A DNA stretch of 64,000 nucleotides from a virus: the IMG/VR virus record IMGVR_UViG_3300045988_138376; one strand, 5' to 3'. Positions 7,461 to 64,000 of this stretch are shown piece after piece (the stretch's first letter is position 1; every line of letters begins with the position of its first letter). The position numbers were made by a program, and so were the translations under genes. Below the pieces are notes generated by a model. The model was not told where the DNA came from. It saw only the letters and a list, made by a program, of their open reading frames with translations, and did not search any database.

Positions 7461-9559
7461 CTTTCATCTCCACTTGTAAATGGCAATCCATTATCCTTAT
7501 TTTGATTAATATCTCTCGTTTCTTGATTATGCCATGATTCGGATTGAGAATATGTAAAAGAATAAGGTTTAGGGGATTCTTCCCATCCATAATGTATATC
7601 TTCATTTTCTTCATTTTTGAACCTTCGGCTTGGTATATCATAGTGCATTCCCACCAAATAATCTACTACACCATACATTCGGTTTTTAGCCACCTCTATT
7701 ACGTTTCCAAATCCAGTATATCCGGCAACCTTATCCTTCCCTAAAAACTCTCCTCCACGTTTAATGAAGTCATTATTAACTCGATGGATTATAAATACAT
7801 TGTCAACAGCATTTGTTAAATCGGCTGTTCCGCTAATTGAATCCTTTCTTAGAAATTCAACTTGTTTACGTGGATGGCAGACCAGAATTAAATGGATTTG
7901 ATTCTTTTTAGAAAACTCGCATATTTTCAAAATTAGCTCTTTTTGCTTATTGTTTTTATCTCCATCAAATAAATCAATATCAAGAGAAAACAAGTTATCA
8001 AGAATCAAAAGCTTTACGCCATTATCAACCATTTCTTTCATGTCGTTAAAAAGCTGCGCGAACTTAGATCCATACTCGTTATTATACAAAAAGAACTTCC
8101 CATCAAGCCAATTATCTATTTTTTCAGCAGCAGCAGGCAAAACATCATACTTTCCAGCGCCAGGTATTCGTTCAACTAAATTCCTACTGCCTGCGGCAAC
8201 CATTTGAATCCAAGTTTTTAGAATATCTGGACGTAATTCTCCGCTCCACAATGCAGCCTTATATCCCTGATTTACAACATTGAGAATTAATGTATTTAGC
8301 CATGATGATTTTCCACTGGAATTACTCCCAGACAAAATAGATACTTCTCCAAGATTTAACCCAACCATAGCCCTATCCAAGACATGGAAACCTGTTTTTA
8401 GACTTATGATTTCTGTCAGATTTATCTTTTTAATATCCTTCATGCTAAACCATTTCTTGCCTAATTCTTTTGTCTCCTCCTTAATTTTTATTTCTTTTTT
8501 TGGATGAGTTGGATAGTTATTATTCCCATATTGGATATTATTTCTTGGAGTAACATCATACGCATTAGGCTCGTATTTTAAGCGCAAATCCCTCCAAGTA
8601 TATTGGCTACATGAATTATGAAAACAAGTAAAACCTATGCCGTCTTTAGATACAAAAATAGCCGAATCAGGATGTTTATGCGAAGAATCAAATGGGCATT
8701 CGTCTAATATGATCTTTCTTGTTCCATCACCAAGCAATGTCTCTTTATGTACTTTTATTCCATGCTTACTGATAAAGTTATCAATATCAAATTGTTCCCT
8801 ATTACCGTTATTAAATCGAACTATTGGTTCTATTTTAGGAATATAATCAGCGAGTCTTTTGAATAAAGATATATCATTCTCTTTAATTTCTTGCGGTACG
8901 ACTAATATTTTGCTAATTCGATGTGGTCTATTAGGCGTATTGCCTCCCTTTCTCGAATACGTGCCATAGAGCTTTGTTATTCTCGCTGGATTAAATACCT
9001 TCACATCAACATCAACATGGTCATCAGTAAACTTGGAAGATAAGTACTTCAAAAAATCCCTGATGATAGTTGTATTTTCATCGGTATTATCCAAATCCAC
9101 CTTATACATCAAATGGTATCCATTACCAGATTCGCAAACAATTGGATAATTAAACCCGTTTGCTTTCAAAAAGGTTCTTGCTGCGTTTGCTGTCTTGCGA
9201 GAACATTCCTTCTCTTCATCAGTACTTGCTACATCCTTTACGCCACCTTCACGTATTGGATCAAAATCAATAAGCACCCAACGTCTTTTTTGAATATCAG
9301 CATCCTTAATCGCAGGTGCACCTTTCACCATAGTGTTAAACTGCGGCAGGCCATCTAAGGCGTTTTTTAGCTCGTTAAAGGTAAAATAGATGTTGTACCT
9401 ATCATCGAACCTTTGAATTGATTCTACGGCTTTATTTGCGTCTCTAAACACGCCTGAATAGATGTCATTCTTGTTTAGTGGATTAAAAAGTCGTATTTCG
9501 AATAATTCTCCATCATTTCTGAATAGAGTAAGGCTCTTTTTTATTTCTTCGTTATTCAT
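7448..9559 (-). CDS. bifunctional AEP-type primase(-polymerase) / DnaB-like (SF4, RecA-fold) helicase
   Basis: AEP motifs are VLIDFDP (DxD), SGNGYHL (sGxGxH) and NPARITKLYGT. A Zn ribbon reads CPFDSSHKH..CFHNSC. Walker A is GSNSSGKS and Walker B is LLILDNL. Confidence 0.8.
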   Translation of the reverse strand: MNNEEIKKSLTLFRNDGELFEIRLFNPLNKNDIYSGVFRDANKAVESIQRFDDRYNIYFTFNELKNALDGLPQFNTMVKGAPAIKDADIQKRRWVLIDFDPIREGGVKDVASTDEEKECSRKTANAARTFLKANGFNYPIVCESGNGYHLMYKVDLDNTDENTTIIRDFLKYLSSKFTDDHVDVDVKVFNPARITKLYGTYSRKGGNTPNRPHRISKILVVPQEIKENDISLFKRLADYIPKIEPIVRFNNGNREQFDIDNFISKHGIKVHKETLLGDGTRKIILDECPFDSSHKHPDSAIFVSKDGIGFTCFHNSCSQYTWRDLRLKYEPNAYDVTPRNNIQYGNNNYPTHPKKEIKIKEETKELGKKWFSMKDIKKINLTEIISLKTGFHVLDRAMVGLNLGEVSILSGSNSSGKSSWLNTLILNVVNQGYKAALWSGELRPDILKTWIQMVAAGSRNLVERIPGAGKYDVLPAAAEKIDNWLDGKFFLYNNEYGSKFAQLFNDMKEMVDNGVKLLILDNLFSLDIDLFDGDKNNKQKELILKICEFSKKNQIHLILVCHPRKQVEFLRKDSISGTADLTNAVDNVFIIHRVNNDFIKRGGEFLGKDKVAGYTGFGNVIEVAKNRMYGVVDYLVGMHYDIPSRRFKNEENEDIHYGWEESPKPYSFTYSQSESWHNQETRDINQNKDNGLPFTSGDESCPF

Positions 9560-10628
9560 GGTTCAATGGTTTTCTTTTCCACTCTTTTTTTTCTGAATTC
9601 CAATTATAATACACTCCCTGACAATATACTGTTGCACCATTAGGACGTTCGTTAGGTTTATATCCATCATATACGCCCCATTCAGGGTTATTAGTTGTAC
9701 AATAGGCATTGATGTTATCATTCCAAAACAGTGATATACCATCACATGATGGAGTGTATGCCTCTTTATAAGCCTTGTCTCCCAAATTGATAATCATATC
9801 ATAGTCTCTTTTAGCAGAAGGAGAATTATGCAATGCTCCTGATAATATGGAGTCAAAATTGCCTTTTGTATTGCTTATAAGCCACATGAAACTTGCTTTC
9901 CATGCTTTACCATTATCTCCTCCTTTGTAGAAATCAGGCAAAGACTCGCAAAGCAATATAGCTTTTTTAATATCATCAACCGAATATCCATCCCTTATTC
10001 TTGAATTAATGGCTGACTTTATTTTCTCAGAAATAACATGGACTTTAGCAAACGATTTGGTACTGTTATTCCAGAAATCAACAATTTCTTTATAAATTTC
10101 TTTATTTTGTTTATTAGTAGAAGAGTTATTAGTATTATTATAGTCTTTTGGTTCGTAGTTGACTACGACCCCCTCTTGTAGTTGACTACGACCCCCCTCT
10201 TGTAGTTGACTACGACCCCCCTCTTGTAGTTGAGTGTCATAACATGATGTGGTTGAATACTTAATTTTTTCATATAGACCAGTCAAGCGAAATGATGTAA
10301 ATGTGCCTTGACCTTGCGCCCTTAATATTTTTTTTTCTAATATGCCTAATTCTACCATCTTATCTATTCTATCAGATAAAGCCTGTTTCTTTATATCCAA
10401 TATTGGTAAATCTTCAAGAATAAGATTATATGTTATCCAATAATAAAGTTTATCGTCTATGATTTGCTTGGTAAATTTATCACGATGTATAATATCTGCA
10501 ATTACCTGTATTATTAGTAAATCAGATACATCTAATGCTATCTTTCTATCCTTTCCCTTTTTATCTTTAATGATTTTATAAATAGATAGCACAGCCTCTT
10601 GATTGAAGTCTAAAATGTTGTATTTCAT
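9552..10628 (-). CDS. replication organizer/initiator-like protein (N-terminal winged-helix-like domain, C-terminal conserved phage replication domain)
   Basis: 358 aa. The C-terminal region (IRDGYSVDDIKKAILLC...WKASFMWLI) resembles the conserved phage C-terminal domain seen in DnaD/replisome-organizer proteins, from memory. The gene contains a triple repeat and lies upstream of the primase-helicase. Confidence 0.6.
   Translation of the reverse strand: MKYNILDFNQEAVLSIYKIIKDKKGKDRKIALDVSDLLIIQVIADIIHRDKFTKQIIDDKLYYWITYNLILEDLPILDIKKQALSDRIDKMVELGILEKKILRAQGQGTFTSFRLTGLYEKIKYSTTSCYDTQLQEGGRSQLQEGGRSQLQEGVVVNYEPKDYNNTNNSSTNKQNKEIYKEIVDFWNNSTKSFAKVHVISEKIKSAINSRIRDGYSVDDIKKAILLCESLPDFYKGGDNGKAWKASFMWLISNTKGNFDSILSGALHNSPSAKRDYDMIINLGDKAYKEAYTPSCDGISLFWNDNINAYCTTNNPEWGVYDGYKPNERPNGATVYCQGVYYNWNSEKKEWKRKPLNHE
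10155..10233. repeat. 3.3 tandem copies of a 23/24-bp unit GTAGTTGACTACGACCCCC(C)TCTT (iteron-like)
   Basis: Read directly from the sequence. Each unit contains the palindrome GTAGT-TG-ACTAC. The repeats encode LQEGGRSQ x3 in the linker of the replication protein. Confidence 0.9.
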
Positions 10629-10632
10629 AATT

Positions 10633-10765
10633 TCTGCATTTAATTAATAAAAAAAAATACCTTTTCCCTGTTTTTTATCTGCATTTAAAAGAGAAGAGAT
10701 GGGAAGGAATGCAGACCTCATTGTATGTTAGCTAATCCATACTTACCCATCTCTTGTTAGTACTG
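10633..10765 (-). ncRNA. structured 5' leader RNA, family copy 3 (upstream of replication organizer)
   Basis: Closing helix AGAGATGGG/CCCATCTCT, hairpin GTATG/CATAC, and conserved GGG..CTTCCC frame. The internal TCTGCAT is complementary to ATGCAGA at 10678-10684 and at 10633-10639. Confidence 0.55.
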
Positions 10766-10773
10766 CAAAGATA
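10766..10773 (-). promoter_or_regulatory. -7 promoter box TATCTTTG (minus strand)
   Basis: caaagata on the plus strand, immediately upstream of the leader structure. Confidence 0.55.
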
Positions 10774-32739: not shown

Positions 32740-32747
32740 TATATTTG
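32740..32747 (+). promoter_or_regulatory. -7 promoter box TATATTTG
   Basis: Perfect TAnnTTTG, 5 nt upstream of the leader closing helix. Confidence 0.55.
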
Positions 32748-32857
32748 CAACCGAAAGGGATAGTTGAGGGTCATGGCTCAATGATAAGGCTAAGCTAACA
32801 GGCTTCCCCTTTCTCTTTTAATCGTCAGAATTACCTCAACCGTTAGTCCTATAACGG
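32748..32857 (+). ncRNA. structured 5' leader RNA, family copy 1 (upstream of recT)
   Basis: The closing helix is GAAAGGG/CCCCTTTC (32753-32813) and the hairpin is GTTGAG/CTCAAT. GATAAG joiner and CTTCCC are conserved. The internal CTAAC(A)GG is complementary to CCGTTAG at 32840-32846, which can alternatively pair with TAACGG at 32852-32857. Confidence 0.55.
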
Positions 32858-32879
32858 AATTAACTTTAATAGAAAAAAT

Positions 32880-33740
32880 ATGGCAGAAACAAAAAATCAA
32901 ATGATTTCCAAAGCTGATATTGGGAATCAAGTAATCACAAGAATAGATGACCTTTGCAAAGTAGGGTTCACTATGCCAGCAGATTACAATTATGTAAATG
33001 CAATTAAAGGCGCAATGCTTTTATTGAATGACGTAAAAAACAAAGATCGAGTTCCCGCTTTATCTTGTTGCACTCCCAATAGTATATCTACAGCGTTATT
33101 CAAAATGGCGACGCTCGGATTGGATGTAACGAAGAAGCAGGCATATCTAATTGTAAGAGGAGACCAACTTTGCCTTGAAGAAAGTTATTTCGGTACTTGT
33201 TTACAAGCAAGAAGAGTCTCTAAAAATTACGAACCAATCGCAAATGTTATCTACAAAGGAGATACTTTTAAATTTGAAGTTAATCCAGAGACAGGAAGAA
33301 AGCGCATTGTAGAGCATACTCAGACATTAGAATCAATTGATTCCGGAGAAATGATTGGAGCTTATGCTATTGTAACAAATGACAAGGGAGAAACCGACGT
33401 TGAAATTATGTCTATGTCACAAATAAAGAAAAGTTGGGCAAAAAGTTCTTCTTCTCAACAGTTGGTGCATCGGGAATTTGGAGACCAAATGGCAAAAAGA
33501 ACTGTAATTAAAAGAGCCGCAAAAATGCTTATAAATTCTGCGCTTTCAGAAAATACTATTCCGGATGATGAACTCGAACCAAATAATGAACTCGATCCTA
33601 CAAAGCAAATTGCTCCTGATTATGCGGAATATGAAGAAGTCGAAGAAGCAACGCCAGTAGAAGCCGTACCCATACAAAAAGAGGAAGCTAAGAAAGAAGA
33701 AGCAGTTAAACAGCCCGCTTCGGAGCCAGAGCCTTTTTAG
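32880..33740 (+). CDS. recT: RecT-family single-strand annealing recombinase
   Basis: 286 aa. The core (LGLDVTKKQAYLIVRGDQL..ESYFG...IGAYAIVTNDKGE...MAKRTVIKRAAK) follows the RecT pattern. It has an acidic tail ending in EPEPF. Confidence 0.75.
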   Translation: MAETKNQMISKADIGNQVITRIDDLCKVGFTMPADYNYVNAIKGAMLLLNDVKNKDRVPALSCCTPNSISTALFKMATLGLDVTKKQAYLIVRGDQLCLEESYFGTCLQARRVSKNYEPIANVIYKGDTFKFEVNPETGRKRIVEHTQTLESIDSGEMIGAYAIVTNDKGETDVEIMSMSQIKKSWAKSSSSQQLVHREFGDQMAKRTVIKRAAKMLINSALSENTIPDDELEPNNELDPTKQIAPDYAEYEEVEEATPVEAVPIQKEEAKKEEAVKQPASEPEPF

Positions 33741-36352: not shown

Positions 36353-36433
36353 AACAGAATACCATGACTGATAAACTACAAACTCTTATTGAAAAATACA
36401 ATAATAATTACTATTTTATTTAAAAGATTTAAG

Positions 36434-36441
36434 TATCTTTG
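36434..36441 (+). promoter_or_regulatory. -7 promoter box TATCTTTG
   Basis: Perfect TAnnTTTG, abutting the leader closing helix. Confidence 0.55.
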
Positions 36442-36535
36442 TAAAGGGATAGGCAGGAGTTATAAACCTGCTGATAAGAGTAAACTCACGCTCTTCCCTT
36501 TATTCTCAAACGTGAGTAATATTAAATAAGTGAGT
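36442..36535 (+). ncRNA. structured 5' leader RNA, family copy 2 (upstream of AP2-domain gene)
   Basis: The closing helix is AAAGGGA/TCCCTTT (36443-36501) and the hairpin is GGCAGG/CCTGCT. GATAAG and CTTCCC are conserved. The internal ACTCAC (36484-36489) is complementary to GTGAGT at 36512-36517 and at 36530-36535, the latter abutting the ATG. Confidence 0.55.
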
Positions 36536-37972
36536 ATGAGTAAAAGAAAAACAACTGAACAATTTATTGAAGAGGCAAGAGCTATTCATGGTGATAAGTA
36601 TGATTATTCTAAAGTAGAATATGTAAATAGCAGGACTAAAGTGTGTATTATTTGCCCTATTCATGGAGAATTCTTTCAAGAGGCTAATGGCCATATTCAA
36701 GGTAAAAAATGTTATTTATGCGAACAGTTAAGAAAAAGAACTAAATTATGTGGTATAGGTGTAAATGATTTAGATCATCCATTGAGCAAAAAAGAAATGA
36801 AATCATATTACGTATGGGCATCAATGATTAGAAGATGTTATGATGAAAAAGAATTAAAAAAAAGACCGTCTTATACAGGTTGCTCCGTTTGTGATGAATG
36901 GAAATACTTTTCCAACTTTAAGAGATGGTTTGATGAAAATTATGTCGATGGTTATCAATTAGATAAAGATATTATTGTAAGTAAAAATAAGCTGTATAGT
37001 CCAAATACTTGCTGTTTTGTTCCGTTGGAAATAAATAATGTGATCAAGAGGGTTGGTTTTAGACGAGACAAATACATTGGAACAACTAAAAATTATAATA
37101 AATATGGAGCATCTATATCTAAATATGGGAAGAACATAAGTTTAGGATATTACGACAATATAGAAGATGCTTATTTGGTTTATAAAAAAGCAAAGGAAGA
37201 TTATTTGAAAGAATTAGCAAATAAGTATAAAGATAAAATTAATGCTATTACATATGATTCTTTAATTAATTATAGAGTTGATGATTTATATAATTTGGAT
37301 CAAGGCTGCGAAAGAGCGCATCCAGAGGAATTTAAAGAGCCAGAAAGGATTCCTATGACAAATGACCAAATATTGCTTATCGCTACATATATTGTTATTT
37401 ATGTCAACGAATTAGCCAATGTATGCGTCATGGACATTAAGCCATCTATTACCAATAAGGACAAGGAGACTCAAAAGATTTATTTTGCAGCGCTTAAACG
37501 AGTTAAGGAGTATCAAAGTCGGATGGCTAAGATCGCAGGTGATAATGCAATAGGTATCTATGCTTCTTACTGTGACGCTCTCGACCAAGAAGTATTACCT
37601 GTTATCGAGAAGTATCGAATGTCCATTGAGAAATATCTTTGTGAGATAGAAGGGGTTGAAAATCCCTATTTCCTATCAATGGTTGAATTAGCGCGAAGCA
37701 TAACAAGTTATTCGGTTATTGCAATCTCAAAAAGAATAGCTGAATGTTTGAAGTTTGATGAAAATGCAGTAGCTTTGCGAGGATATAAACAGTCCGAACT
37801 ATTGAAGATCTTGGAAGAATTATGCAAATGGTGCTTTAGAAAAGCTTCTGATATAAATTACAATGAAAGTGAAGAATGCGTAAATGCCTATAGGGAATTT
37901 GACGCGATACTCACAAATCCGGATATTATTTCAACATGTATTATTAACGCTAACGAATTAGAAAACAAATGA
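36536..37972 (+). CDS. AP2-domain DNA-binding protein (homing-endonuclease-associated architecture) with uncharacterised helical C-terminal half
   Basis: The start is set at the ATG at 36536; the track uses a GTG at 36530. There is an N-terminal Cys/His module (CIICPIHGEF...KKCYLC). The AP2-like segment is YIGTTKNYNKYGASISKYGKNISLGYYDNIEDAYLVYKKA. Confidence 0.6.
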   Translation: MSKRKTTEQFIEEARAIHGDKYDYSKVEYVNSRTKVCIICPIHGEFFQEANGHIQGKKCYLCEQLRKRTKLCGIGVNDLDHPLSKKEMKSYYVWASMIRRCYDEKELKKRPSYTGCSVCDEWKYFSNFKRWFDENYVDGYQLDKDIIVSKNKLYSPNTCCFVPLEINNVIKRVGFRRDKYIGTTKNYNKYGASISKYGKNISLGYYDNIEDAYLVYKKAKEDYLKELANKYKDKINAITYDSLINYRVDDLYNLDQGCERAHPEEFKEPERIPMTNDQILLIATYIVIYVNELANVCVMDIKPSITNKDKETQKIYFAALKRVKEYQSRMAKIAGDNAIGIYASYCDALDQEVLPVIEKYRMSIEKYLCEIEGVENPYFLSMVELARSITSYSVIAISKRIAECLKFDENAVALRGYKQSELLKILEELCKWCFRKASDINYNESEECVNAYREFDAILTNPDIISTCIINANELENK

Positions 37973-38550
37973 AAGTAAAAATTAAGAAAATACATAAAGA
38001 CGAATTGTGGGAATTTTATCCATTAGACAATAGATACCTTATATCAAATTACGGTAGAGTTTGGAGTACTATAAATAACAGGGAGCTTAAAAACAGTATA
38101 AATGGAGCAGGATATTTATGTTGTTTAGGAGAAAGTGTACATAGATTAGTGGCAGAAACATTTATCCCTAATGTGCATAATTATACAGAAGTAGACCATA
38201 TTGATACAAATAGAAAAAATAATTTTGTTGGTAATCTAAAGTGGTGTAATCATCCCGAAAATTGCAAGAACCCCATAAGTATAAATAAAAGAAAATTAAA
38301 AGATGGTTTCCGAGTAAACTTAGGTGTAAGTTTTTCAGATGAGCATAAAAAGAAAATATCAGAAGCGCAAATCGGGAACAGAGGTATTCCAGTAATACAA
38401 ATGTCATTAGATGGGGATTTTATTAAAGAGTATGTAAGCCTTAATCAAGCTGCGAAACAGAATAATATATCCAGGAGGAATATATCAAGATGTTGCAATG
38501 GAATTTACAGTCAGGCAAATGGTTATAAATGGATATATAAAAATAAATGA
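37969..38550 (+). CDS. HNH homing endonuclease (NUMOD4-like N-terminus, HNH_3 core, C-terminal HTH)
   Basis: The motifs are YLISNYGRVWS, VHRLVAETF...VDHIDTNRKNNFVGNLKWCNHPEN, and a C-terminal LNQAAKQNNISRRNISRCCNG. Confidence 0.8.
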   Translation: MKVKIKKIHKDELWEFYPLDNRYLISNYGRVWSTINNRELKNSINGAGYLCCLGESVHRLVAETFIPNVHNYTEVDHIDTNRKNNFVGNLKWCNHPENCKNPISINKRKLKDGFRVNLGVSFSDEHKKKISEAQIGNRGIPVIQMSLDGDFIKEYVSLNQAAKQNNISRRNISRCCNGIYSQANGYKWIYKNK

Positions 38551-63282: not shown

Positions 63283-64000
63283 ATGGCAAAAGTAACTAAT
63301 TTTTCTGAATCTGCAAGCGATAGCCTGCAAATTCCAGCGTCAGCCAACGAAAAAGGCATTTTAACAAAAAGCAGTTCAAGCAGTGAAATCGAATTGTATT
63401 TCCGAAAAGTCTTAGAACTCAGCAAGTCCGATAACGAATTTCCCGTCAATCTCGAAGAGGTGTGGATGCTGGTATATCCAAGAAAAGATCACGCTGTTAG
63501 AGAATTGGTAGAAGGCAGTCAGTTTATGGAAGGTGTTGATTATCAAGTTTTCCTCAAAAATGGGGAAAACCCTAAAGGAGGAAGACCTACAAATGAGTAC
63601 AAGCTTACCGTTCCCTGCATGGAATTCTTCATTGCAAGAAAAGTCCGCCCAGTATTTGAAGTTTATCGCAAAGTGTTCCACAAAGTAGCAAACGCTTCTA
63701 CTTCTACATCCGATGTAGTTTTGTGGATTAATGCAGTTTCCGACTCTTTGAATCTGAACAAGCAGTCTAAACTCTTATTATTCAAGAAATGGGGAGATAG
63801 TAGAGATTTGCCAACTCCTGATTATGTAGATTCCGCGGATATTCTCTTATCAGCAACTGAGCTTTTAAAGCGCAATGGGCTTAATATCAGCGCAAGAGTA
63901 TTCAATGTGGCTATGATAGAAAAAGGCTTTTTGGAAAAGTGTACTCGCCCTTCAAGCAAAGGACAGAAAGTTTTCAATCACCTAACTACTAAAGGTCTTG
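63283..64000 (+). CDS. AntA/AntB-type antirepressor (3'-truncated by the window end)
   Basis: My hand translation from the ATG at 63283 stays open to the window end. The segment NLEEVWMLVYPRKDHAVRELVEGSQFMEGVDYQVFLKNGENPKGGRPTNEYKLTVPCMEFF is AntA-like. It is absent from the track because there is no stop codon in the window. Confidence 0.65.
   Translation, partial: MAKVTNFSESASDSLQIPASANEKGILTKSSSSSEIELYFRKVLELSKSDNEFPVNLEEVWMLVYPRKDHAVRELVEGSQFMEGVDYQVFLKNGENPKGGRPTNEYKLTVPCMEFFIARKVRPVFEVYRKVFHKVANASTSTSDVVLWINAVSDSLNLNKQSKLLLFKKWGDSRDLPTPDYVDSADILLSATELLKRNGLNISARVFNVAMIEKGFLEKCTRPSSKGQKVFNHLTTKGL

Follow-up and report, generated by a model that had tools for sequence, protein, structure and literature searches.

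The c4 system of phages is characterized by duplicated targets and by RNase P processing. Repression of ant by the c4 and sar RNAs takes place at the ribosome binding site (RBS) of the gene (PMC12197685), and RBS-sequestering RNA structures have been documented for the homing endonuclease genes of T-even phages (PMC2988022). In the latter case, the leaders of I-TevI, I-TevII, I-TevIII, segB, and mobE form hairpins that pair with the initiation region, presumably limiting endonuclease synthesis (PMC2988022). These are simple local hairpins without a conserved scaffold, and they form on read-through transcripts only, since transcription from the gene's own promoter begins within the hairpin. To our knowledge, the restraint of free-standing homing endonucleases outside the T4-like phages, and their tolerability to phages of unrelated hosts, is largely unknown.

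Three other RNAs are relevant here. The HIV-1 DIS exemplifies the kissing-loop format, phi29 pRNA is built on a three-way junction and forms oligomers through intermolecular loop-loop pairs, and the lariat-capping ribozyme GIR1 is a dedicated structured RNA that forms the 5' terminus of mRNAs for intron-encoded homing endonucleases. Natural RNA homodimers are reported to be rare.

The DNA analyzed here (the window) is a 64,000-nucleotide stretch of the IMG/VR virus record IMGVR_UViG_3300045988_138376. An earlier note on this sequence had singled out three loci with a shared architecture. A regular-expression search of 128 kb (both strands) with the core pattern GGGWWAG..RATRAG..CTTCCC recovered exactly these loci, with no further match:

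32757–32808, plus strand: core-pattern match of copy 1
36446–36498, plus strand: core-pattern match of copy 2
10748–10701, minus strand: core-pattern match of copy 3

All three are intergenic and lie 4 to 17 nt past a TAnnTTTG box, and every feature that had been listed for them (closing helix, GGG-WWA junction, covarying hairpin, purine joiner, CTTCCC, and T-rich run) is present.

The window copies (32753–32813 and 36443–36501 on the plus strand, 10695–10754 on the minus strand) are members of a far larger family, which ranges over IMG/VR phage contigs and genome assemblies of Bacteroidales and Bacillota. The exact core pattern occurs in at least 119 IMG/VR stretches; the matches listed reduce to 58 unique cores, of which 44 contain both hairpins. 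Since the length of the third helix, P3, varies, core alignments made with MAFFT misplaced the 3' half. Model R1 was therefore seeded with seven members of equal length, and the family alignment, comprising 51 unique members, was built by Infernal. Every alignment seed holds the exact words GGGATAG, GATAAG, and CTTCCC, and the family alignment is biased in this respect.

The suggestion that no named RNA family fits these loci agrees with Rfam 15. The window and 15 loci gave no match at the gathering score, and permissive scans (E ≤ 10) around copy 1 and around a consensus-like member yielded nothing meaningful, the top match being Thermales-rpoB (E = 4) on the wrong strand. The family thus adds to gut phages a widespread structured RNA class that is absent from Rfam 15. 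A full-text literature search returned no description of the motif; the 8,495 candidate RNAs catalogued from IMG/VR in 2023 (PMC10690425) may include it unnamed. Among cultured phages, no near relative was found by megablast with a 10-kb query, nor did a distant blastn search with a Firmicute-type leader give a match. The element is also absent from Bacteroides phage PhiCrAssBcn4 and Streptococcus phage CHPC577, which both carry similar endonucleases. No tRNA or tmRNA was found within the window. A group I intron context was dropped, as the elements lie between open reading frames (ORFs) and no intron model matched. A fourth candidate in the window (63794–63846) was rejected as a chance match: it scores 13.5 bits (E = 0.3) with mismatched P2 pairs, the approximately 90 nt that were read upstream contain no TAnnTTTG box, and matching sites were not observed.

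Three helices, P1, P2, and P3, make up a three-way junction that spans the first 55 to 60 nt or so of the predicted transcript. Its joiners, GGGAUAG, GAUAAG, and CUUCCC, are near-invariant (conserved joiners AUA, GAUAA, and U), and the junction is followed by a U-rich linker and then by two direct-repeat sites. In the earlier layout, the elements were correctly identified, but what was taken for a "9-14 nt variable segment" forms the loop of an additional hairpin, P3, which makes the fold a three-way junction. Likewise, the covarying stem of the hairpin described there (P2) stands, whereas its palindromic loop had been missed. The canonical subtype is defined here by a match to models R1/R2, by a P2 loop that contains a palindrome, and by a pair of downstream sites to which the P3 loop is complementary. 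Copy 2 has all of these:

36434–36441, plus strand: -7 promoter box TATCTTTG, read from the sequence, inside the inserted cassette
36443–36501, plus strand: canonical three-way-junction RNA; covariance-model matches of 78.9 bits (E = 1.5e-19) and 70.8 bits
Within this RNA, plus strand: helix P1, AAAGGG(A)/(U)CCCUUU
36452–36472, plus strand: hairpin P2, loop AGUUAUAAA with palindrome UUAUAA
36473–36478, plus strand: joiner GATAAG
36478–36493, plus strand: hairpin P3, loop AAACUCAC
36511–36517, plus strand: site 1, CGTGAGT, complementary to P3 loop ACUCACG (duplex, -10.9 kcal/mol)
36530–36535, plus strand: site 2, GTGAGT, abutting the ATG at 36536 (duplex, -8.8 kcal/mol)
36536–37972, plus strand: cargo, a chimeric ORF with a homing-endonuclease domain (~257 amino acids [aa]) in frame with the C-terminal ~220 aa of another gene

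Covariation is strong in all helices. In the 51-member covariance-model alignment, 98.1% of cells are paired, compared to 76.6% in shuffles, and double-change cells number 162 in the family alignment against 40.6 in shuffles, with double changes at 10 of the 14 pairs. P1 covaries as well (CGG/CCG, GAG/CUC, and AGG/CCU). The G·U pairs are strand specific, 41 of them falling at the closing pair of P2, which speaks for RNA over double-stranded DNA. Minimum-free-energy folding of copies 1 and 2 alone (ViennaRNA) did not produce the consensus junction. The proposal of a structured RNA with covarying helices and covarying long-range pairing is supported in the larger alignment that the earlier note had called for: homologues exist, and covariation among the 51 unique members exceeds that of shuffles.

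The long-range pairing is real and family-wide. The longest exact complement of the P3 loop averages 7.1 nt, compared to 2.0 nt when a loop is matched to another element's leader. Normally, the pairing involves two direct-repeat sites, an arrangement the earlier note did not recognize. Two separate sites occur in 44 of 50 elements (8% in controls), site 1 approximately 13 nt past P1 and site 2 on the start codon or in the Shine-Dalgarno region. In 41 of 42 cases, the distance between the end of the last site and the ATG is in the range of -7 to +14 nt (median, ~3 nt; 32 nt in the remaining case), and in Firmicute-type members this site overlaps GGAG/GAGG. The alternative pairing CCGTTAG/TAACGG that had been suggested at 32840–32857 is a local hairpin of the copy-1 lineage only and does not extend to the family. 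A role as translational operator, also raised before, would fit the fact that the second site falls on the start codon or the Shine-Dalgarno sequence.

A loop complementary to repeated targets on the same transcript, the second of them at the start codon or Shine-Dalgarno sequence, constitutes a functional likeness to the C4 family. Like c4 of P1/P7 (also the P4 CI RNA and N15 CA RNA; Rfam C4), the element is a small structured RNA on the same strand and transcript as the gene that it would control and upstream of it (PMC12197685). As in c4, variable loops complement the region of the downstream RBS, the target is present more than once, differences in loop and target correspond to specificity between phages, and the cargo includes an anti-repressor gene. 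However, the two share no sequence or structure homology (no C4 match at E ≤ 10), and there is one recognition loop here, in contrast to the two of c4, the second loop being palindromic. Moreover, this RNA is predicted to start at the transcription start, whereas c4 is excised by RNase P, and the family occurs in phages of Bacteroidota and Bacillota, in several apparently orthogonal copies per genome and mostly on homing endonuclease genes.

In 42 of 51 members, the second loop, that of P2, holds a perfectly palindromic stretch of 6 nt or more, compared to 11% of shuffled loops and none of the 51 P3 loops. Eight palindrome variants exist, all of the form U-NNNN-A, in which the inner four bases vary while the symmetry is preserved; a conserved asymmetry, AG...A, surrounds them. 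A self-complementary hexamer kept in a loop despite sequence change is what the kissing-loop (DIS-like) format entails, and the P2-loop palindrome is a match to the format of such a putative dimerization site. As in the HIV-1 DIS, a 6-nt self-complement lies in an 8- to 10-nt loop, is flanked by purines (AG-palindrome-A), and varies between lineages yet remains self-complementary. Here, however, the carrier is a phage mRNA leader instead of a packaged RNA genome, and dimerization is predicted from sequence. Loop-loop helices of the window copies have predicted energies of -2.0 to -7.5 kcal/mol (RNAduplex), values that describe the helix and not dimerization itself. The phi29 pRNA is likewise a phage RNA built on a three-way junction with hairpin loops, but it is part of a packaging motor, uses two different complementary loops to form a ring, and has neither a link to translation starts nor homology to this family. 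The covarying palindromic loop predicts natural RNA homodimers, in combination with a loop-coded address that has a decoy copy and an RBS copy of its target.

The earlier note regarded DNA-transaction genes as the common theme of the downstream genes, which does not hold across the family: the theme is mobile or accessory cargo. Free-standing homing endonucleases account for approximately 37 of 50 downstream genes, about three quarters, and the remainder are Ant anti-repressors and replication initiators. The element is always oriented in the sense direction of the downstream gene. In the relative L004, the endonuclease gene and both sites are kept while the three-way junction is lost; the RNA is therefore not essential for keeping the gene. 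Copy 2 illustrates the mobility of the unit. The left junction of its cassette lies at approximately 36417, as homology to the uninterrupted L002 allele stops at 36416, and window positions 37309–37990 are 97% identical to the 3' part of a 450-aa ORF that is intact in L002. Residues 64 to 260 of the cargo match PHROG HNH endonuclease families. Its product, previously read as an AP2-domain protein, joins a homing-endonuclease domain to what the disrupted host gene encodes in its C-terminal part. Copy 2 is at the head of an endonuclease cassette inserted into a gene, and it is somewhat probable that it represents a complete working unit of the kind proposed below. The RNA looks like a ready-made control unit moving with the endonuclease gene, one cassette having visibly landed in another gene of the window.

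Copy 1, upstream of recT, comprises the following features:

32740–32747, plus strand: Bacteroidetes-type -7 promoter box TATATTTG, read from the sequence, 5 nt before the base of the extended P1
32753–32813, plus strand: three-way-junction RNA; covariance-model matches of 64.2 bits (E = 1.8e-15) and 61.9 bits
Within this RNA, plus strand: helix P1, GAAAGGG/CCCTTTC
32763–32782, plus strand: hairpin P2, loop GGUCAUGG at 32769–32776
32783–32788, plus strand: joiner GATAAG
32788–32803, plus strand: hairpin P3, loop at 32792–32799, with one G·G mismatch in the covariance-model alignment
32823–32828, plus strand: site 1, degenerate (CGTCAG, compared to CGTTAG in the leaders of the relatives L002 and L004)
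32840–32846, plus strand: site 2, CCGTTAG, in bulged pairing with loop CUAAC(A)GG (-7.5 kcal/mol)
32855–32879 (approximate), plus strand: 3'-end remnant of an Ant gene, just before recT; the last ~25 nt (GGAATT..TTTAATAGAAAAA) are kept relative to L004

Of the canonical features, this copy has the model match only, both sites being weakened, site 1 by degeneration and site 2 by the bulge. The duplex of site 1 with the P3 loop amounts to only -1.1 kcal/mol. Site 2 is displaced from the start codon, as it lies 33 nt from the recT ATG; in the L002 counterpart, the matching loop pairs perfectly over 8 nt. The palindrome is 4 nt long, or 6 nt counting G·U. In L004, a gene for a 243-aa protein (9268–9999) is situated between the copy-1 element and recT; it is deleted in the window. 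From its N-terminal sequence, we take this protein to be the Ant anti-repressor. The position upstream of recT given in the earlier note is therefore correct as such, but it is left over from the deletion of the Ant gene, which has the same element at its head in L004. By this comparison, copy 1 is a decayed unit, an apparent relic before recT after loss of the Ant gene.

Copy 3, upstream of a replication-initiator gene, is organized as follows:

10766–10773, minus strand: -7 promoter box TATCTTTG, read from the sequence, 11 nt before the base of the extended P1
10695–10754, minus strand: divergent-subtype three-way junction, exactly reproduced by the minimum-free-energy fold
Within this RNA, minus strand: helix P1, AGAGAUGGG/CCCAUCUCU
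Within this RNA, minus strand: joiners, the first UAA and the second AAU
10742–10723, minus strand: hairpin P2, loop GAUUAGCUAA with the 8-nt palindrome UUAGCUAA
Within this RNA, minus strand: hairpin P3, GAGG/CCUU, loop UCUGCAUU at 10715–10708
10678–10686, minus strand: site 1, AAATGCAGA, complementary to the P3 loop (duplex, -12.2 kcal/mol)
10633–10641, minus strand: site 2, AAATGCAGA, ending 4 nt before the ATG (duplex, -10.5 kcal/mol)
9552–10628, minus strand: cargo, the replication-initiator gene (PHROG replication initiation/DnaD-like loader)

Membership of this copy, assumed in the earlier note, is borne out by its complete architecture but not by models R1 and R2, which represent canonical members and miss it (E > 10). 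It was therefore filed as a divergent subtype by architecture. Element B of L148–152 is a second example, and the divergent sequences are too few for a third covariance model. Besides this second example, the assignment is backed by canonical elements in L067 and L068, where they lie upstream of replication genes homologous to that of copy 3. We judge the chance that copy 3 is a complete, divergent unit of the proposed kind to be slightly better than even.

The predicted promoters are tied to the fold. In members of the minimal type, in which P1 has only 4 bp, the -7 box ends 4 nt before G1, and it is proportionally farther upstream when P1 is extended; in Firmicute-type members, TATAAT lies 6 to 8 nt before G1. 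As promoter distance scales with P1 length, the whole of P1 should be transcribed, and the host-type promoter is predicted to place the transcript start at the base of P1. A T4-like arrangement with the promoter inside the inhibitory stem was rejected, since promoter distance tracks P1 length. Three members directly follow tRNA genes. For annotation, the motif can help to locate promoters, transcript starts, and the limits of mobile genes in the genomes of uncultured phages.

On balance, we consider it probable that the element is a portable 5' leader RNA of mobile and accessory phage genes that exerts c4-like translational control. The P3 loop would serve as an inbuilt antisense "address," base pairing with the translation initiation region and limiting translation of the cargo. 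A fraction of the transcripts might end or be cut in the U-rich tract, freeing the junction as a small RNA; two identical junction RNAs could then join through the 6-nt palindrome of their P2 loops in a kissing dimer, which would hold sites 1 and 2 together and cover the ribosome landing pad. Upon entry, the cargo would be expressed in a burst and then shut off by the accumulating RNA. With two identical sites, pairing in cis should prefer site 1, which is closer, and the RBS would stay free; repression therefore needs the trans/dimer assumption or another factor. The 4-bp P1 of minimal-type members makes a poor canonical terminator, and release of a small RNA stays a proposal. For the solo element A of L148, no convincing trans targets were found in the DNA examined. 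The purpose would be that of the T-even hairpins, but in this family every transcript should carry the conserved junction, a loop holds the anti-RBS sequence, and the target has a decoy copy. If the P2-palindrome and P3-loop codes are orthogonal, as the sequences suggest, the element would be a compact programmable translational regulator that could work in Bacteroides and Firmicutes, for which genetic tools are scarce.

A bolder form of this proposal, which we put forward tentatively and regard as rather doubtful, is a self-dimerizing, RNA-only translational repressor that travels with selfish genes, in which junction RNAs of approximately 60 nt, made by each cassette for itself, kiss in pairs through a private palindrome and use their two address loops to clamp the identical sites on either side of the ribosome landing pad of that cassette alone. 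In RNA form, it would correspond to a dimeric repressor bound to two half-sites. Its P2 palindrome and P3 loop would be two independently programmable codes, keeping several cassettes per phage orthogonal, and it would provide a burst-then-silence program for homing endonucleases across host phyla without a host-specific factor.

What an RNA-only antisense model leaves unexplained is the near-invariance of the junction nucleotides across phages of two phyla, which could constitute a protein or ligand site. GGGAUAG, GAUAAG, and CUUCCC are identical in 51 of 51 unique covariance-model matches while every helix is variable, an invariance that is in part an artifact of how the members were collected. 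The junction might accordingly be a sensor that binds a protein (a ribosomal protein, a nuclease, or a phage factor) or a ligand, with the P3 loop choosing between decoy site 1 (on) and site 2 (off) in the manner of a riboswitch or operator. One loop with two identical alternative partners is the layout of a two-state switch, and a core common to Bacteroidales and Bacillota contexts suggests a universal partner. Even so, we think this unlikely. None of the riboswitch or ribosomal-protein leader models of Rfam 15 matched, even at E ≤ 10, and the palindromic P2 loop has no place in it. Furthermore, copy 3 and element B of L148–152 have the same architecture with different junction words, so the junction sequence is not strictly required.

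The coincidence of the predicted transcript start with the base of P1, regardless of how long this helix is, could alternatively point to 5'-terminal protection, in which the paired 5' end and a pseudoknot between the P3 loop and site 1 form a compact, cap-like fold that shields the cargo mRNA from 5'-dependent decay (RNase J/E/Y, pyrophosphohydrolase) and translation is not the target. With a loop of the three-way junction paired to sequence farther downstream, the topology is reminiscent of exonuclease-resistant RNAs, and processing of the three members behind tRNA genes would likewise leave the junction 5' terminal. This explanation is distinctly unlikely, given that a simple 5' hairpin would suffice and that it offers no reason for a second identical site at the start codon or Shine-Dalgarno sequence in 42 to 44 of 50 members, nor for the self-complementary P2 loop.

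The linker past P1 is 59% U and 3% G, with at least five U residues among its first 8 nt in 40 of 50 elements. In 24 of 50 members, P1 itself continues outward for another 4 bp or more (approximately 12% in controls), which places stems of 8 to 13 bp before the U run. The element might therefore be an attenuator or insulator, ending some read-through and cassette-initiated transcripts to keep cargo expression low and the cassette isolated, with loop-site pairing merely tuning the fold. We rate this as quite improbable, with P1 of the minimal type limited to 4 bp and the start-codon site and P2 palindrome left unexplained. The sites lie downstream of the would-be terminator and so cannot affect termination of the same transcript. 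A simple terminator scan does not call the junctions either, because its loop limit is 3 to 8 nt; the stem closes a three-way junction, not a simple hairpin.

It is very improbable that the element is a self-cleaving ribozyme or an RNase P-type signal setting the 5' end of the endonuclease mRNA, as the analogy of the lariat-capping ribozyme might suggest. Its size, many fixed junction nucleotides, and pseudoknot are ribozyme-like, and the association with homing endonucleases and the location of some members right after tRNA genes would be in keeping with such a role. However, models for hammerhead, twister, twister-sister, pistol, hatchet, HDV-like, and GIR1 ribozymes all remained unmatched, even at E ≤ 10; GIR1 itself is a group-I-derived ribozyme of approximately 180 nt from eukaryotic twin-ribozyme introns. 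By eye, the G8 on which the hammerhead core depends is missing from the joiner YGAUAAG, and P3 is not followed by GAAA. In most members, their own promoter sets the 5' end at G1, which makes cleavage unneeded.

Least probable of all is a DNA-level element without any RNA role, either the operator of a dimeric DNA-binding protein or single-stranded DNA hairpins in replication or homing: P2 is indeed an inverted repeat of operator-like size with a palindromic center just downstream of the promoter, but its arms vary freely yet stay complementary and its center exists in eight forms (conservation of base pairing, not sequence recognition), G·U pairs are frequent on the sense strand only, the AG...A loop asymmetry disfavors a symmetric DNA site, and the element is always sense to the downstream gene, with its second site tied to the start codon.

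A search of both window strands with the pattern GGGWWAG..RATRAG..CTTCCC returned only the three loci that the earlier note had grouped, at 32757-32808 (+), 36446-36498 (+) and 10748-10701 (-), and their architecture is as described there. All three are intergenic, and reading of the sequence places a Bacteroidetes-type TAnnTTTG box shortly upstream of each. The elements and the genes that flank them are as follows.

32753-32813 (+), element, copy 1
32880-33740, RecT gene, flanking copy 1
36443-36501 (+), element, copy 2
36536-37972, gene for a 478-amino-acid (aa) protein whose residues 1 to about 260 match HNH homing-endonuclease PHROGs, flanking copy 2
10695-10754 (-), element, copy 3
9552-10628 (-), gene for a replication-initiator/DnaD-like protein, flanking copy 3

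Copy 3, with different junction words (GGGUAAG, AAUGAGG, CCUUCCC), was missed by R1/R2, covariance models built from canonical members; all architectural features are present in it. A further covariance-model match at 63794-63846 (+) (13.5 bits; E about 0.3, the E-values of the models built here being rough) has mismatched P2 pairs. The roughly 90 nt read on its upstream side contain no TAnnTTTG box, matching sites were not seen either, and it was judged a chance match. The window contains no tRNA, and no near relative was found among cultured phages.

An exact-word scan of IMG/VR with GGGATAG-N-GATAAG-N-CTTCCC matched at least 119 stretches. Among the matches listed there are 58 unique cores, 44 of which contain both hairpins. 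A covariance model seeded with seven members and searched on approximately 1 Mb of fetched loci yielded 87 matches (51 unique), some of which lack the exact words. With a stricter pattern, the element was found in nine genome assemblies. Its hosts include Bacteroidales (Prevotella, Segatella copri, Bacteroides, and Leyella) and Bacillota (Ruminococcus, Oscillospiraceae, a Clostridia bacterium, and Vagococcus). The statement that the elements match no named RNA family held for Rfam 15 at gathering score across the window and 15 loci, and two elements scanned permissively against Rfam 15 yielded no meaningful match. A literature search found no published description of the three-way-junction leader RNA; the family may be present, unnamed, among the 8,495 candidate phage RNAs of PMC10690425.

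The consensus fold of the family is a three-way junction of helices P1, P2, and P3, with the following parts.

P1: GGG(A)/(U)CCC, frequently with an outward extension
Joiner from P1 to P2: short, AUA
P2: closing pair G.U or G-C, stem of 5 to 6 bp, loop of 8 to 10 nt
Joiner from P2 to P3: GAUAA
P3: invariant closing G-C pair, stem of 3 to 5 bp, loop of 7 to 12 nt
Joiner before the P1 return strand: one U

The covarying helices proposed from the three copies were borne out by the family alignment, which is biased toward exact junction words: standard pairs occupy 98.1% of cells, versus 76.6% after shuffling. Changes occur on both sides in 10 of 14 pairs, double-change cells number 162 versus 40.6 in shuffles, and pairing collapses in every slid register. 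P1 also covaries (CGG/CCG, GAG/CUC, AGG/CCU). The many G.U pairs form in the sense strand only, which favors an RNA over a DNA palindrome and weighs against a DNA element.

The -7 box of minimal members ends 4 nt upstream of G1, the base of P1. An extension of P1 by 4 to 9 bp is accompanied by a matching upstream shift of the box, to 9 to 17 nt, and Firmicute-type members have a TATAAT-like box ending 6 to 8 nt upstream of G1. Given this spacing, the RNA is predicted to start at the base of P1. These comparisons show the predicted 5′ end of the transcript of the downstream (cargo) gene to be a conserved RNA fold. U makes up 59% of the linker that follows P1 and G only 3%, and its first 8 nt hold at least five U in 40 of 50 members; the spacer between the two sites described below is A-rich. 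Three elements without a promoter lie 3 to 10 nt past the 3′ end of a tRNA gene (L072 4726-4778 and 5987-6037; L081 10846-10896). Those of L072 precede GIY-YIG endonucleases inside a tRNA cluster, likewise the setting of segB of T4, and the L081 cargo is an unannotated 114-aa fragment ended by the contig edge.

The long-range pairing of the "variable segment" proved to be family-wide, with the corrections that the segment is the P3 loop and that its targets are usually two. Within 80 nt downstream, the longest exact complement of the loop has a mean length of 7.1 nt and reaches 7 nt or more in 36 of 51 elements. The corresponding figures are 2.0 nt when a loop is compared with the leader of a different element and 2.4 nt in a same-sense control. 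The target forms a direct repeat of two copies in 44 of 50 elements versus 8% in controls. The median distance from P1 to the start of site 1 is 13 nt. In 41 of 42 cases the end of the last site falls between -7 and +14 nt relative to the ATG; the one exception lies at 32 nt, and the median is about 3 nt. Firmicute-type members have their last site overlapping the Shine-Dalgarno sequence GGAG/GAGG. Four leaders, written from site 1 to ATG with the L023 spacer in lower case, illustrate this layout.

L023: GTTTGGCA-ccactaaatt-GTTTGGCA-ATG
L040: CACTGAGG-taacttttaaatt-CACTGAGG-ATG
Window copy 3: AAATGCAGA ... AAATGCAGA-aatt-ATG
Window copy 2: CGTGAGT ... GTGAGT-ATG

These comparisons show co-evolution of the P3 loop with two predicted sites, one of them over the translation start.

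The P2 loop carries a feature that the earlier note had missed. In 42 of 51 unique elements this loop holds a perfect palindrome 6 nt or longer, compared with 11% of shuffled loops and 0 of 51 P3 loops, which shows the P2 loop of the predicted fold to be self-complementary. The eight forms (UAAUUA, UCAUGA, UAGCUA, UUGCAA, UCGCGA, UUAUAA, UGAUCA, and UUCGAA) all read U-NNNN-A, usually with AG before and often with A after, which is the format of the HIV-1 dimerization loop. The inner bases vary while the symmetry is retained, as predicted for pairing between two identical loops. The window copies have UCAUGG (self-complementary with G.U), UUAUAA, and UUAGCUAA. In this small sample, compared partly by eye (L027:1496 alignment row), the palindromes differ between copies in all five sources with at least two scored elements (the window, L004, L027, L072, and L115).

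Homing endonucleases make up about 37 of the 50 downstream genes. The cargo types are listed below.

HNH homing endonucleases, NUMOD4-type (..EEWRDVxGYEGLYxVSxxGRV..) and phrog_559-type: 23 unique proteins in a single BLAST cluster
GIY-YIG endonucleases: seven proteins in one cluster and two more in L072
Other endonuclease types: phrog_374, phrog_12131, and HNH PHROGs (8446/7545)
Ant anti-repressors: the L086 cargo and the L004 gene
Replication initiators: copy 3, L067/68, and L115

From these patterns, we infer a new RNA family with two unusual features that would exert antisense-type translational control. It is somewhat probable that the P3 loop pairs with the initiation region and thereby limits translation. 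The c4 RNA acts on ant of P1/P7 by pairing with the initiation region (PMC12197685), and T-even homing endonuclease genes use ribosome-binding-site (RBS)-sequestering hairpins to the same purpose (PMC2988022). The leader RNA resembles both the c4/CI-type same-strand antisense RNAs and the T-even leader hairpins in mode of action, but belongs to neither: its scaffold differs from both, and it has no c4/CI-type model match. A purely cis model is problematic, because the nearer site 1 should win and leave the RBS free. In a version that draws on every feature, junction RNAs might instead be freed when transcripts terminate or are cleaved at the U tract; they would pair via P2, and the dimer, or a free RNA together with the cis copy, would then fill both sites. 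With a median spacing of 19 nt, the sites jointly cover the ribosome landing pad, from about -35 to -1. The outcome would be an expression burst followed by silencing, or dosage compensation, either of which would suit nucleases, anti-repressors, and initiators. We put this dimer-clamp version forward tentatively and consider it rather doubtful. A protein- or ligand-controlled switch, a 5′ stabilizer, an attenuator, and a ribozyme are rival readings of the leader; none of them, nor a DNA element, accounts for the second site and the palindrome together.

At copy 2, the endonuclease cassette has split a gene. This 450-aa gene, intact in the relatives L002 (13854-15206), L014, and L015, has its codons from about 18 to 232 replaced in the window by a block beginning at 36417 that comprises the promoter, the junction RNA, both sites, and an endonuclease domain of about 257 aa. 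A stub of 19 codons remains (36365-36424), and the domain is fused in frame to the C-terminal 220 or so residues of the interrupted gene (36365-37972); the 478-aa "AP2/HNH" protein is therefore a chimera. In the close relative L004 (13150-13250, corresponding to window 36417-36540), the same endonuclease and both sites occur without the approximately 60-nt three-way junction, and the promoter box is damaged (TATCTTTT in place of TATCTTTG). The junction was apparently lost by deletion between short CTTT repeats, and this allele provides a ready-made natural control. Nearby, relatives have an extra 244-aa ORF (L002 13123-13857) with an FPCQ motif, which is typical of cytosine-5 DNA methyltransferases. 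Its absence from the window, between 36352 and 36358, marks this intergenic spot as a hot spot of gene gain and loss.

At the copy 1 locus, L004 has the element, sites CGTTAGC and TGTTAG, 4 nt, the ATG of a 243-aa gene, and recT; the protein is presumably Ant-like, judging from its N-terminal sequence. L001 and L003 have an element match at the same offset, from which the same arrangement was judged. The 243-aa gene is lost in the window and L002, with its last 25 nt or so retained (window 32814-32879 versus L004 9226-10000 and L002 9931-10000). The copy 1 leader is a hybrid of an L004-type loop and L002-type sites and consequently pairs poorly, with loop-site duplexes of -1.1 and -7.5 kcal/mol, whereas those of copies 2 and 3 range from -8.8 to -12.2 kcal/mol. 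Given the gene loss, the poor pairing, and a remaining site 33 nt from the recT ATG, copy 1 is most likely a relic. The alternative pairing proposed at 32840-32857 turned out to be a local hairpin (CCGTTAG-tcct-ATAACGG) of the copy 1 lineage only (also in L002) and not a family feature; it overlaps site 2 of copy 1 and is terminator-like by pattern scan.

Loci L148 to L152 contain a divergent element (AGAGUGGA...UCCACUCU, loop UAGCUA, sites AAATTCAG and AATTCGGGAA-tt-ATG) upstream of a replication gene (start, 829) with a different N-terminal domain. Two elements stand there in tandem behind one shared promoter (about 619-676 and 706-770). The leading one, a canonical-like solo junction, has GAAAGAG as its joiner and shows no target in its vicinity; the other is the divergent element, whose matching sites lie at the start codon. 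The segment separating the two includes the loop sequence of window copy 3 (CTGCATT), which suggests module shuffling.
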